64,000 nt of DNA from Eledone cirrhosa (lineage: Eukaryota). A program made the translations under genes and the position numbers. The DNA lies in assembly GCA_964016885.1 (NCBI GenBank), contig OZ024745.1:120404001-120468000 (forward strand), read 5' to 3'. Below are positions 20,900 through 30,825 of the stretch, piece after piece (within the stretch, counting starts at the first letter, position 1; the number at the start of each line of letters is the position of its first letter). Under the pieces are notes generated by a model, which did not search any database, was not told the DNA's origin, and worked only from the letters and a program-made list of their open reading frames with translations.

Positions 20900-20952
<53 letters not shown>

Positions 20953-21325
20953 TGCCAAGACTGGAATTGAACCATCAGCACAGTTGAGGTATGTCAGACA
21001 TCAATTTATTTTATCTGATGAGGACGTACTGAGGAAACAGCACAGTACCTCTGAAATATATATAATAAAATATATTTGATCACATGAATGTCTATATTCA
21101 TTAATATTTTGAATTAATATATATATATATATATATATATAACTGGAAAAAAAATATATGCTTATGTTAATCTGTATATACATTTCACTATAGGCATATT
21201 TTAACTATATTTGTTTATGTATATATATGTAAGTGTGCATGTATGAATATGTATATGCTTGTATGTATATATATGTGTATAAGTGTACATACATATGGTT
21301 GTATATATGTCTATATCTATACATG

Positions 21326-21358
<33 letters not shown>

Positions 21359-21476
21359 AAGTATATTAATATGGATGTGTATGTATACATGTGTATGTAT
21401 GAATATATTAGCATGTTTACATATCTATACAGACATGTATGTGTGAGCATATATACGTATATATGTATGTGCATGC

Positions 21477-21570
<94 letters not shown>
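20900..21570. repeat. (TA)n and (TATG)n microsatellite complex
   Basis: Direct reading. Source of the YI-repeat ORFs. Confidence 0.95.
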
Positions 21571-21573
<3 letters not shown>

Positions 21574-21574
21574 G

Positions 21575-21691
21575 TTATAAAGAGTCGGGGCCCGACGGCT
21601 GAGCTCTTGCCGTTTCAACTGCTAGTTCCAAAGTCTGGAACTAGCAGTTGAAACGGCAAGCGCTCAGCCGGCTGGTGCCGACTCTTTATAA
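21575..21691. repeat. Fold-back repeat (~56-bp arms, 5-nt loop) containing the 3' half of a hammerhead motif
   Basis: ttataaagagtcgg..gctagttcca-aagtc-tggaactagc..ccgactctttataa. The minus strand of the left arm reads GAAACGGC-aagagctca-GCCGTC. Confidence 0.9.
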
Positions 21692-22269
21692 TATAACCAT
21701 ACTCTACCACCACAAGTATCGAGTACTCTGTTGAGTAATGGTCTAACCAGTTTCAAACTAAACACATCCTGATATATATATGTATATATTGTATGAGGTC
21801 GCTCCTGGGTGCAGCAGGTAACATTTAAGGCAGTGTAACCTGTCCTATGGTCGAGTCATCGGTGACTAAATCGGCAAACCCACCAACTTTGTTTGGTGAG
21901 GTGGGTGATTTTGGACACCCTGCAGGATGAAAAACAAAACTTGACAAAGGGCGGAGGAACTCATGGGAGTCAACGGTCATTCAACAGTGTGTATATATGT
22001 ATATATTGTCTGGAAATATCTATATGGTATGGATATCTCATTTTATCTTCATTCATTTATTTATCCCATTTATTTATCTGGAAAAATCTGTAGTCGCTAT
22101 AGCTACCAAAAATCTGTTATTCTCTGCGAGAAGGACACTCCGAAAAACCTGCTGTTGTTACAGTAACCGATCATCTAGCACATACTTGTCATTTGATTCT
22201 GGCTGGTGATATTTAGTGAGTAGCATGTGTGTAGTACAACCACATGGTACTTTGATCTCTTTGAGAAAA

Positions 22270-23185
22270 TATCTCTCAAAGTCCTGCGGCGATGGGGAAG
22301 CAGTGACGTAGTCAGACCTAACATGTAGCTATACAGTTGCTAATCTACACACATACGGCTTAACTTTTATCTAACGTCGTTGTCAGTTTTCGAAATAGCT
22401 TAGGCAGCGTCTTTTGTGATAGTACAGCCCTTACACTGTTCACCCACATTTTTGGAGCGTTCTAGAAAGTTGAGCCAGACATTGTCTGTTCTACCATCAA
22501 GCTGGTCAGCTTCCTGTGGCTGACGGCTGTTCATACCGGCAGGAAAAACAAGAAGAAGACTGGTAATTTTCAGAAGAATCTCCTAAAGAATCTTCTATTG
22601 AATGTTGCTACATGGAATAATAGAACACTTCTTGACAGGGAATCATCCAGAAATCCAGAACTGCTATTGTTGGCAGAAAACTGAGCAGGTATAATATCGA
22701 TATATCTACACTATCTGAAACCCGTCTTTGTGGTGAAGGTCATCTATCAGCGAATGGTGTTGGTTATACGTTCTTCTGGAGAGGAAAACCAAATAGTTTA
22801 AAATGGAATGGAGGAGTAGATTGCACTGTCTGGAGAAAATTCACAAAGCGACTGGAACAACCAGAAGGCATTGGTAATGGAAATATGCATCTGAGAGTTC
22901 CTCTTTCAAAGGGACGTTTCATGACTGTCATTTCAGTGTATGCTGCTACCCTGGATGGTAGCTAGGAATCAATCATGGTTTTTTTCCAAGATTTATGAGA
23001 GTGTATAACATCGATTCCAGATTCAGACAAGATCTTGGTTCTTGGAAATGTTAATGCACGTGTGGGAAAGGACAACCGCATTTGGAGTGTTATAGGACGC
23101 TACGGCATGGAAAAGATTGTCTTTTCCTTTTTCAATTGTCTTCTCCTTTTCCAATTATGTACTGCGTTTGATCTGGTCGAGTGCA
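22270..23185 (+). mobile_element. RTE-BovB-like LINE 5' fragment (AP endonuclease)
   Basis: LNVATWNNRTLLD, LSRYNIDISTLSETRLCGEG, GYTFFWRGK, VISVYAATL, LVLGNVNARVG. Stops present. Confidence 0.85.
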
Positions 23186-23229
23186 GCTTATGGAGAAGTG
23201 TGTTGAGCGACGACTGTCACTCCACCTCG

Positions 23230-23685
23230 TTGTCTGTTAGATCTTTACTGTATACAACTGTTGACTGATAACGTCGTAATTTAGATCTTTACTATATACA
23301 TCTGTTGACTAACAACGTTGTCTGTTAGATCTTTATTATATACATCTGTTGGCTAATAACGTCGTCTGCCTGATCTTTACTCTATACAATTGTTGACTAA
23401 TAACGTCTGATAGATCTTTACTATATACATCTGTTGACTAATAACGTCTGTTAGTTCTTTACTATATACATCTGTTGAGTAATGACGTCTTTTAGATCTT
23501 TACTATATACATCTGTTGACTTATAACGTATGTTAGATCTTTACTCTATACATCTGTTGACTTATAACGTCTGTTAGATCTTTACTCTATACATCTGTTG
23601 ACTAATAACGTCTGTTTGATCTTTATTTTATACAACTGTTGATCTTTACTCTATACATCTGTTGACTAATAACGTCGTCTGTTAC
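23230..23685. repeat. 41-44-bp minisatellite, ~11 copies
   Basis: Unit tctgttagatctttactatatacatctgttgactaataacg, with or without tcg. Confidence 0.95.
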
Positions 23686-23721
23686 TGATGCATGTCAATC
23701 ATTTCTCTCATTTCACCCTAG

Positions 23722-23814
23722 AAAACCAGGAATAAAAGCTTGCGGCTACCGATGTGTTTATGACCATACGCCACGTGAGGAAACGAAAGAAAAGAAACCT
23801 AATTTTCTTCAAAG
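23722..23814 (+). CDS. Uncharacterised 123-aa protein, coding exon C (KPGIKACGYRCVYDHTPREETKEKKPNFLQ[R])
   Basis: Pyrimidine tract atttctctcatttcaccctAG with no other AG in the preceding ~80 nt, donor AAG|GTAGAT. 93 nt, phase 2 to 2, only one open frame. Confidence 0.8.
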
Positions 23815-23869
23815 GTAGATAACGAGGAATTATGGACAATATTATTGTAAACTCATATTGATTGACTTT

Positions 23870-28489: not shown

Positions 28490-28681
28490 AAACTCACTTG
28501 GACAAAGATTTTTCTTAAATGATCCCCGCCAGAAACGAATTCAAAATGGCTAAGAACTGTGACGTAGCAGTGGTAAAGTCAGAAAGAATGTGATTGGTGC
28601 ATTACGGCTAGTGGGCTGGTTGCTAGAAAGCGCAGCCTAATATTGCCTAAATTGCATCTCAACCTTTTGGGAGATTATCAA

Positions 28682-28798
28682 ATATAAAGATTTACATATA
28701 CACAAACTAGACGAAGTCATAGATATGTTTTGGGCAACCATCGTGAATGGTTGCCAAAAACATATCTATGACTTCGTCTAGTTTGTGTATATGTAAAT

Positions 28799-28805
<7 letters not shown>
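28682..28805. repeat. Fold-back repeat (~60-bp arms) abutting (TA)n
   Basis: atataaagatttacatatacacaaactagacgaagtcatagatatgtttt..gcaaccat-cgtga-atggttgc..aaaacatatctatgacttcgtctagtttgtgtatatgtaaatctttatat. Confidence 0.92.
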
Positions 28806-28846
<41 letters not shown>

Positions 28847-28869
28847 ATGTGTGTGTGTGTGCATGTGTA

Positions 28870-28926
<57 letters not shown>

Positions 28927-29399
28927 ATATTTGGGAGGCTCATATTGTTGTAATAATATTGCCAGAAATAATAACAGAACACACTCACTGTTTGGTTGGT
29001 TTTCGCTTCTCTATCTTTTATATCTCCAGAGTTAATTTATTTGGGCATCAATGTTTATCACTGACTGACCAACAGATATAAATATATATATATATATATT
29101 TCTTTGTTTAGTCTAACAAAGTTCTTTCGGTGCACATCTGCAACATCATCAATGGTACTATTATCATGTTCCCTCCTATTGTGTTGTGTTTACGCCATTT
29201 TTATTTTATTTATTCATTTATTTATTCATTTTTGTCTCCGTCTCTGCGCATGCGTTTACGTGTGTGTATAATGTTTGGTGTGTGTGTGTTTGCGTTTGGG
29301 TGTATGTGTTTTGGTTTTTTTATTCTATCTTTGTTTATTAGTGTGTGTTTATGTGTTTGTTGTTATTGTACTTGTGTATATATTTATTTATATTTTGAA

Positions 29400-29985
29400 C
29401 TAACCATCAGCCTTGGGAAGACAAGCGTCTTGAGACAAGACACAGGCACCACCGGTCAACAAAATTGATGACTAGGAGCTCGACGTCATCCATCAGTTCC
29501 CCTACCTCGGTTCCACCATCACCGACAACCTCGCCCTGGACACAGAGCTTGACAGGAGGATTGGGAAGGCAGCCACAACATTTCCTCACCTCACAACCCG
29601 AGTGTGGTCTTTACCAAGCTGGTGGTAAATACCAAGATGGCTGTGTACAATGCCTGTGTCATTGGCACACAGCTGTATGGCAGTGAGACATGGTCCCCAT
29701 ATGCTAGACAGGAGAGGCGACTCAACACCTTCATTCCGAGAAGCCTGCACCGTATGCTGGGTATATCCTAGCAGGATAGGGTGCCCAACGCCTAGGTCCT
29801 TATTCATGCTGGCCTTCCCAGCATGTTTACCCTGCTCCAGCAGCGCAGATACGCTGGCTAGGACATGTCCACCACGTGAGTCATAGCCACATCCCAAAAG
29901 ACATCTTATATGGGGAGCTGGCCTCTGGAAAGAGAGTCACCGGTCGACCTCGGCTGCGACACAAGGACATTGTGAAAAGAGATAC
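29400..29985 (+). mobile_element. RTE-BovB-like LINE RT/C-terminal fragment
   Basis: HQFPYLGSTITDNLALDTELDRRIGKAATTF, TKMAVYNACV..LYGSETW, IPKDILYGELASGKR..GRPRLRHKD. Confidence 0.88.
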
Positions 29986-30091
29986 CCCCTGGAAAACACA
30001 TTCTCTTGTGTATTTTGAAGTGCCCATAAATTTTTTCCTTTGAGTTTATTACAGGGATAAACGCGAGTCCTTTACTCCGTTGCTTTATTTG

Positions 30092-30140
<49 letters not shown>

Positions 30141-30214
30141 TGTGTATATATTCATTGTTCTGTGTCGTTTACCTTGTTATTTCTGGTTACTTTTTACACA
30201 CATACACACACACA

Positions 30215-30291
<77 letters not shown>

Positions 30292-30342
30292 CGTTTTTGT
30301 ATTTGTTTTGCAAGGTTTCTCATCTGAAAACGTCTGTTGAAA

Positions 30343-30808
30343 AAGATAGTTATGCTTTGGGATGGTCATGTTCCCAATAGAAACACACGCACCTGTTAGT
30401 ATTCACTTCAATTTATTATAAACATCCAGTCGGTTAGTTTAGTAACCGGATGGTTGTTTATTTGTTTAGTGTCAACGCTCTTTCGTCATATTATGTGACC
30501 TCCTCAGTGATTAATTTGTTATTTTGTGTCTCTCCTTTGTTCTGATTTACACCATCTTGTTTTTGTGAGCTGTTTACTCACAGCACACAACTCACAAAAA
30601 CAGGATGGTGTAGGACAGAACAAAATAACAAATTAGACACTGAGGAGGTCACAGATTTTGTGACAAAAGAACTTTGACACTAAATAAATAAACAACCGTC
30701 CGGTTCAGAAACTAACCGACTGGAAGTTTATAATAAATTGAAGTGAAACTAACAGGTGCGTGTGTTTTTATTGGCACCATGACCCTCACAAAGTATAACA
30801 ATATCTAT
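30343..30808. repeat. Diverged fold-back repeat (~225-bp arms) with degenerate hammerhead cores
   Basis: acacgcacctgttag..aaccggatggttgtttattt..gtgacctcctcagtg mirrors cactgaggaggtcac..aaataaacaaccgtccggtt..ctaacaggtgcgtgt. Follows (TG)n/(CA)n tracts. Confidence 0.9.
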
Positions 30809-30825
30809 ATGTGTGTGGGGGGGGG

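Follow-up and report, generated by a model that had tools for sequence, protein, structure and literature searches.

The window analysed here is a stretch of 64,000 nucleotides (nt) of Eledone cirrhosa DNA (C5:120,404,001-120,468,000, from an assembly of 3.0 Gb in 1,796 contigs). Its positions 20900-30810, a stretch chosen after the fact, hold long inverted repeats and hammerhead ribozyme motifs among (TA)n tracts, and are discussed below in terms of Penelope-like elements (PLEs) and their pseudo-long terminal repeats (pLTRs). Self-BLAST locates five inverted repeats, all at the places given by an earlier sequence-only reading, with arm identities of 88% (21572-21694), 89% (26248-26338), 94% (27279-27616), 94% (28682-28806) and 82% (30346-30802). 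A type I scan for exact and one-change hammerhead cores gives three exact cores (21015-21064 on the plus strand, 27389-27340 and 28484-28413 on the minus strand) and two with one change (26834-26872, CCGATGA, and 27506-27555, CTGATAA, both plus). Halved or decayed hammerheads occur at 21650, 27101-27151, 27624-27667, 27725-27830 and 29119-29152 and in both arms of 30346-30802, so that the complete and partial motifs of that reading are also confirmed. Nor did it see an open reading frame (ORF) for GIY-YIG endonuclease or reverse transcriptase (RT), and tblastn with nine PLE proteins (E<=0.01) likewise finds no such remnant in the window plus 10 kb on each side. Rfam reports no hammerhead at gathering score in the window and none at E<=10 in 19000-33000, its matches being just weak microRNA hairpins below gathering score. 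As controls, 600 kb of genome, sampled as 60 tiles of 10 kb at even spacing, and a shuffled counterpart were scanned with a related descriptor, which finds 43 hammerhead motifs in the former and none in the latter. The features of the stretch are as follows.

20900..20951, no strand: (TA)26 tract, one of 10 tracts of at least 10 units in 20900-30899
20952..21116, plus: terminal piece of family A, a Hydra-type Penelope pLTR, with the minimal hammerhead at 21015-21064
21572..21772, plus: family B, fold-back 21572-21694 with a one-sided tail to 21772
26248..26920, plus: copy of the family F 3' untranslated region (UTR; Hydra-type), with 5' fold-back 26248-26338 and hammerhead 26834-26872
27101..27151, minus: short piece with CTGATGA core and helix I, without GAAA
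27184..27611, no strand: family A head-to-head fold-back 27279-27616, with a 100-nt tail on the left arm alone
27624..27667, plus: family H half hammerhead (helix II 3' strand, GAAA, helix III), ending on (TA)28
27725..27830, no strand: half-hammerheads from two distinct repeat families, joined head to head and flanked by TA tracts
28122..28808, minus: family G copy, with hammerhead 28484-28413, 5' fold-back 28682-28806 and 3' end on (TA)n at 28122
28922..29396, minus: older repeat end, E-related, with decayed hammerhead 29152-29119 (core TTGATGA)
30291..30808, no strand: head-to-head fold-back of family E at 30346-30802, with a tail confined to the left arm, beside (CA)n

The hammerhead at 21015-21064 has an intact core, a G-U pair closing helix II and a palindromic helix III. 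The B piece retains the 3' half only (GAAA at 21650), and its cleavage triplet is mutated. Within the A fold-back the minus-strand hammerhead (27389-27340) is intact and the plus-strand one (27506-27555) mutated, while both arms of the E fold-back carry mutated hammerheads. The core of the repeat at 28922-29396, missing from the earlier list, is intact in its relatives, and 27101-27151 is inferred to be a hammerhead end with a deletion. Mutual dissimilarity of the families, as first described, does not extend to 20970-21125 and 27279-27434, which are 89% alike, or to B and H, which have a 16-mer in common. Likewise, two of the five palindromes are not separate items: 26248-26338 is the 5' end of the F copy and 28682-28805 that of the G copy. 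All five palindromes are dispersed repeats, present in thousands of copies, that fold back head to head.

First-look searches of the genome returned 1,616 candidates for A, 3,428 for E, 3,990 for B, 1,961 for F and 3,916 for G, and 70,942 for the endonuclease half; the 40 best-scoring copies per family were then scored, H alone being sampled from unselected DNA. Four contig sets compared with 26150-28900 show only a high repeat depth. Copies elsewhere in the genome connect four families to coding elements. The upstream flank of A copies reaches the end of a GIY-YIG ORF after about 1.2 kb (loci L021, L027), and the A tail leads into an ORF start in L131. Copies of F have RT-GIY-YIG frames of 367-650 amino acids upstream; in L150 and L160 the order is pLTR-tail-ORF-pLTR, with about 4.1 kb from pLTR to pLTR. 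Long H copies have a Hydra endonuclease upstream on the same strand. Relatives of E lie 3' of another, non-Hydra Penelope endonuclease (frames in L040, L013 and L157); because E and its older relative at 28922-29396 are found downstream of an endonuclease with the CCHH motif, they are assigned to the Neptune or Nematis clade.

A single ORF, RT followed by a C-terminal GIY-YIG domain, is present in relatives L150, L152, L154 and L084, and none is present in the window. HADKTNN and RVRWR appear in L150, L154 and L160 (DKT for DKG, RWR rather than RWK). In alignment A1 residues C509, C511 and C517 are invariant (the CxCx5C linker), CNLCLLE and CQH are seen, and CCHH is absent. The Pfam GIY-YIG match is weak (E 8e-4, below cut-off), and the Pfam search left the RT of L150, L152, L154, P0001, P0004 and P0033 undetected. 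Named relatives of the retroelement protein come only from Argonauta hians, an octopod. Remnants of Hydra type are present in 9 of the 60 control tiles and those of the other Penelope type in 8. B and H are one superfamily. The Penelope pLTR origin first proposed from the letters alone is thus upheld, with A, F and H 3' of Hydra-type ORFs and E 3' of another clade, and the linked RT/GIY-YIG ORFs are found for all four in copies elsewhere in the genome. The accompanying description of the families as non-coding suits G; it fails for A, F, H and E, which are the ends of coding elements.

Family G has its own 3' end upstream of its own start, with a period of 686 nt, and its copies are circularly permuted. 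Ten of 30 copies are longer than one unit, and none runs on into an ORF; L100 is a multimer of 2.45 units with two hammerheads 686 nt apart. The longest methionine-initiated ORF is 37 amino acids, and the best tblastn match to the nine PLE proteins has E 0.014. The hammerhead core is intact in 19 of 21 copies, and 28484-28413 is predicted to adopt a canonical type I fold at minimum energy, the only piece to fold as a complete monomer. One copy in 30 starts exactly at the cleavage site and four more at most 21 nt downstream of it, and the start of L100 is within 1 nt. By these features G is a non-LTR retrozyme-like family, built of tandem type I hammerhead units and devoid of coding capacity; the earlier suggestion of retrozyme-like elements is therefore good for one family here. 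The TA target and the fold-backs of G are the same as those of the resident PLE families, and G is likely carried by the same enzymes, which ties a retrozyme to the Penelope machinery through insertion footprints, beyond sequence likeness. A second retrozyme-like family was also encountered, whose 310-nt tandem units each have a minimal hammerhead and end on TA (L165 3650-4620, plus, four units; L169 9955-9300, minus, three units).

The fold-backs have a regular structure. Both arms belong to one subfamily in 45 of 48 palindromes (19 of 21 for H, against 55% expected), the three discordant cases looking like typing noise, and the arms of a palindrome share private variants. In each family the 3' end is fixed at either of two TA-like sites, 55-140 nt apart, and the tail between these is the 5' UTR of the element. 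This tail is on both arms in none of 20 B palindromes and in one of 11 H palindromes. Arms of one subfamily with a one-sided tail fit the fold-back of a single complementary DNA (cDNA), as proposed for Penelope (Arkhipova et al. 2013, PMC3846280). Homogenisation by conversion could also make arms alike. The concordance of arms rejects a two-RNA origin (twin priming) as the rule. Head-to-head joints of ends from what look like different families, with no TA between them, were seen at 27725-27830 and in L292, upstream of its G copy; these may be rare two-RNA insertion events. Since palindrome centres vary from copy to copy, fold-backs are not inherited from a master.

The 5' ends of short copies are concentrated. 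In 28 of 30 B copies the start lies no more than 18 nt ahead of the GAAA anchor, the A of TCAGTC (offset 16) forming an upper wall, and the two longer copies retain the CTGATGA core. For H, 25 of 30 starts fall within 15 nt of the anchor, and 16 of 22 ends lie in the 16 nt that surround the A of TTAGT versus 5 of 22 in the preceding 25 nt. Both walls fall within hammerhead loop 2, so that most B/H copies carry half a ribozyme. Genome-wide there are 73,923 matches to the 3' half versus 3,613 H copies with the 5' strand; long B/H copies form about 5% of matches, and about 95% are without the 5' half. A canonical core is found 8-60 nt upstream in 177 of the 73,923 matches, which underestimates long copies because long H copies have non-canonical cores. 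In the core search 38 short-spacer matches were put down mostly to chance or chimeric joints. In a biased sample of A, six of 39 copies end at the A of TCACT, some 65 nt ahead of the core, and one ORF-bearing F copy starts at TCAGTT. By comparison with the Initiator consensus, TCAGT and TTAGT are taken to be Initiator-like. TCACT has been named as a motif of this kind (PMC3846280), and the Penelope pLTR promoter is internal, with an Initiator (Inr) and a downstream promoter element (DPE) (Schostak et al. 2008, PMC2377424). Two more abundant fold-back families have their centres just before or in the hammerhead core (L168, L171, L176, L181, L183, L191, L196, L193, L198), so 5' pile-ups near the ribozyme are not confined to B/H.

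From the position of these motifs, the wall of 5' ends would seem, by a modest preference, to mark the 5' end of the RNA. It could instead be a place where RT stops at helix II on a longer RNA, either because strand displacement is poor or because loop 2 is nicked: copies of B and H stop just past the 3' strand of helix II, and helix II is long in B, H and X, at about 10 pairs. We regard this as rather unlikely, given that three subfamilies with otherwise dissimilar loops have the wall at one and the same Initiator-like motif, with A-G-T columns 56-58 conserved in alignment A2. Family A stops outside the ribozyme, at the TCACT already noted, and the helices II of A and G are equally long, yet are crossed by most copies. 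Nor do we find it probable that the short B/H units propagate themselves as non-autonomous elements resembling short interspersed nuclear elements (SINEs). A solo half-hammerhead would then keep the downstream part of the promoter, be transcribed, be re-inserted in trans and be immune to self-cleavage. The great excess of units without the 5' half would suit such a cycle, and non-autonomous mobilisation is plausible in view of G. However, short H copies bear the same subfamily variants as the long, ORF-bearing copies, and the varying palindrome centres also speak against it.

The reading of the wall as an RNA 5' end forms part of a proposed mechanism, inferred with PMC11167929 (Frangieh et al. 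2024), PMC2377424 and PMC3846280 as its basis. An internal pLTR promoter would start RNA at the Initiator-like motif, which in A, F and G precedes the hammerhead and in B and H falls inside loop 2. The endonuclease would nick (TA)n, and RT would begin internally at one of two sites near the RNA 5' end. A cDNA that reaches this end would leave a copy of 120-300 nt, and one that continues through a tandem or circular template a long copy. Where the cDNA end snaps back and copies itself to the inner site, a palindrome with a one-sided tail would result. New copies would land in TA tracts beside old ones, with clusters growing where TA is dense. We are fairly confident of the general conclusion, that the pieces in the stretch are pLTR ends of several Penelope-like families, mostly of the Hydra clade, together with a 686-nt hammerhead unit, inserted at TA repeats throughout the genome, and that the short copies likely arise by RT run-off, often folding back. 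A broader picture is offered more tentatively and at somewhat under even expectation. It holds that the short copies may be a retrovirus-like strong-stop product of Penelope, primed near the RNA 5' end and run off at the Initiator. In B/H the promoter would have moved into the hammerhead, so that the first ribozyme is born halved and non-cleaving, and some 70,000 scars would mark the start site. The 686-nt retrozyme would use the same TA-seeking machinery, and about 200,000 hammerhead motifs would be present in a 3-Gb genome; for the axolotl, with a genome ten times larger, 120,000 retrozyme copies have been reported.

Several points weigh against this account. An Initiator motif is short and occurs commonly, a clear pile-up of 5' ends is absent from the F and E samples, and the pile-up queries for A and G began a few bases downstream, favouring short copies. 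Except for H, the samples are the best-scoring 40 copies rather than random ones. B is tied to Hydra ORFs solely through inverted neighbours and its kinship with H. The clade placement, which should be taken as provisional, comes from motifs and not from a tree that includes reference elements, and the F unit of about 4.1 kb compares with a usual length of <3 kb for Hydra, although that is a tendency rather than a strict criterion. The G starts at the cleavage site are only suggestive. Stem covariation, named earlier as a check, favours the account insofar as the fold is kept in long B/H copies, less so insofar as the aligned rows were chosen by core and helix patterns and are mutually related.

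In the alignment of long B/H/X copies, 89% of cells are paired versus 83% in shuffles and 26-51% in slid controls. Seven of 21 pairs have two-sided changes, a count reached by 43 of 500 shuffles, and C3-G8 becomes U3-A8 in 5 of 16 rows. Judged from this alignment, selection maintains the hammerhead fold in long B/H copies. For single hammerheads the z-scores against shuffles are weak (-2.7 to +0.6) and were set aside as evidence. Cores are intact in 39 of 42 A copies (CTGATGA) and in 13 of 20 pattern matches for E, and a CCGATGA core (U4C) is family-fixed in F (22 of 24 copies). A hand count of the first 100 long H copies listed gave 52 TTGANAA (U3-A8), 38 CTGARAA (C3-A8), 10 other and no canonical core. 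An H subfamily with core CTGAGAA, in which C3 faces A8 and inactivity is expected, makes up 38 of these 100 and has thus spread widely.

The target 10 kb contains four fold-backs by the control scan, which missed the fifth, and four hammerheads. The 60 tiles have means of 0.85 fold-backs (maximum 3) and 0.72 hammerheads (four or more in two tiles), against 0 in shuffles, and one tile reaches the combined count of 8. Counts rise with the number of TA tracts (Spearman 0.48 for fold-backs, 0.40 for hammerheads), and TA content is 7.0% in the target and 3.4% in the tiles. The stretch, picked afterwards, is therefore the upper tail of a genome-wide pattern that follows TA-tract number, the cluster is ordinary for this genome, and the term hotspot used earlier is not warranted. 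Scaled to the genome, the tiles imply about 255,000 fold-backs and about 215,000 hammerhead motifs (Poisson 150,000-280,000; the true range for hammerheads is wider, because two tandem arrays account for 7 of the 43 and several are paired arms of a single insertion). Targeting of TA, by contrast with the hotspot, is borne out by enrichment at termini: an end abuts (TA)4 in 40 of 51 control fold-backs, versus 14% of random intervals, and 35 of 43 hammerheads have TA within 350 nt on their 3' side, versus 29% expected. An empty-site comparison of the sampled loci, which bears on whether TA is made by insertion or targeted, returned at least 128 noisy candidates, with no usable case among those listed.

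The sequence-only reading had placed the cluster in the introns of one gene, as a hotspot where non-coding, ribozyme-bearing families could cut the pre-mRNA of the host or give rise to double-stranded RNA. The high density, equalled in a single tile, is what this would lead one to expect, and the complete G hammerhead should cleave, according to its predicted fold, if its strand is transcribed. We consider it very improbable, however, since the density belongs to a continuous background linked to TA number, host exons flanking on both sides were not found, and the majority of motifs are halved or mutated. Published work describes minimal hammerheads as dependent on a dimer or a protein and as poor cleavers (Cervera and de la Pena 2014, PMC4209133; PMC11167929). 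Pre-mRNA cleavage is unlikely for most pieces because they are halves, mutated or minimal motifs of this poorly cleaving sort. A cyclin-domain gene, encoded on the minus strand and ending at 56681, >25 kb away, was the sole host gene detected, although the stretch might lie within a long non-coding gene or a gene without a homologue match. Exons of the cyclin-domain gene are at 56681-59840 of the window (minus; last coding exon 57886-56681) and L137 1605-9169 (minus), with homologue P0121 and Pfam Cyclin PF08613; we presume it to be CNPPD1-like.

That the palindromes are TA-targeting miniature inverted-repeat transposable elements (MITEs) or assembly fold-backs can be practically dismissed: their arms end on TA, as in Tc1/mariner MITEs, and B is short and nearly always palindromic among its best full-length matches, but the arms are 3' ends of RT-bearing elements and also occur singly, centres vary and the tail is on one arm, TA stands at both ends in only 2 of 51 control fold-backs, and an assembly artefact is not expected in arms that differ by 6-18%. 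Conserved terminal inverted repeats around a shared interior, with TA duplication on both sides, were not found, and for A, E, F and G the MITE candidate was ruled out by their ORF or tandem links.

Read as Penelope ends, the pieces resemble known systems in many respects. Hydra-1_Obim of Octopus bimaculoides, 2,507 bp, lies on (TA)n (Craig et al. 2021, PMC8557442). The elements here share with the Hydra clade of that paper the C-terminal GIY-YIG, DKT, the RW-basic motif, the CxCx5C linker and the lack of CCHH, as well as CxxC and CxH around E and N, the (TA)n target, a hammerhead and inverted 5' copies with a one-sided tail. They differ in a unit of about 4.1 kb with a long 3' UTR, in tails of 55-140 nt rather than 30-40, in family-fixed core variants (U4C, U3-A8, C3 with A8) and in number, there being tens of thousands of copies here where PMC8557442 gives one octopus family. 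As in the PLE minimal hammerheads of PMC4209133, helix II is long with an extra nucleotide before it, helix III is palindromic, the U3-A8 variant occurs, and opposite-strand pairs 100-700 bp apart derive from truncated elements; unlike those, B/H/X have a full 5-bp helix III and most copies are the 3' half only.

G agrees with animal non-LTR retrozymes (Cervera and de la Pena 2020, PMC7229834) in being non-coding, tandem or longer than a unit, with one type I hammerhead per unit. Its 686 nt exceed the usual 150-450, within the range of 51-972 given by Li, Clavereau and Pollet 2026 (bioRxiv 10.64898/2026.07.22.740005), and it is distinguished by a 3' end fixed on (TA)n and by fold-backs at the 5' end that resemble those of resident PLEs. 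Dependence of retrozymes on PLEs is already published (PMC7229834; bioRxiv 10.64898/2026.07.22.740005); the fold-backs and (TA)n end of G are a direct footprint of that proposed mobilisation. Two neighbouring internal RT start sites would bound the tail, as they do for Poseidon PAc of Anolis in vitro, which uses an AT-rich nicked target and for which hammerhead cleavage is dispensable (PMC11167929). As in Penelope (PMC2377424, PMC3846280), an internal Inr/DPE promoter or TCACT Inr would lie in the pLTR, and head-to-head palindromes have been ascribed to self-priming (PMC3846280). Unlike in PAc and Penelope, the sites here are TA-like and 55-140 nt apart, and there is a genomic wall of 5' ends at an Inr-like motif, inside the ribozyme in B/H.

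Hydra elements on octopus (TA)n, inverted pLTRs with a one-sided tail and internal priming have already been published, and most of what is described here is known. In the literature searched, which includes few subscription papers, we found no report of copies starting inside a hammerhead and no hammerhead numbers for octopods, PMC13282606 being without the word 'hammerhead'; for the giant squid there are 235 Rfam hammerheads (PMC6962438). The families provide a very large natural record of Penelope-like integration, termed unresolved in PMC8557442 and PMC11167929, with cDNA starts (two fixed sites), stops (the Initiator-like wall) and one-template palindromes. The importance of hammerhead cleavage for spread could be tested on the amplified families that have C3-A8 or U4C cores. 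Misfiled Penelope ends may form several per cent of the short 'unknown' or MITE-like repeats in such genomes.

Among other features of the window, minisatellites of 41 bp (23232-23642) and 33 bp (23871-24198) lie within 20900-30810 and are unrelated to the hammerhead pieces. A transfer RNA match at 1930-2011 (plus, 62.7 bits) has a long variable arm and an anticodon read as AGA (Ser). Two broken, facing elements of the long interspersed nuclear element (LINE) type occupy 33323-38520 (plus) and 38914-42325 (minus), with domains zf-RVT at 37690-38517 and RVT_1 at 40545-41306, and further LINE remnants lie at 11289-13000, 22636-23130, 25560-26247 and 29430-29990. Short interspersed repeats are present at 20500-20760 and 21790-21990, the latter with several 74-85% relatives in the sampled loci, after TA or TG tracts.

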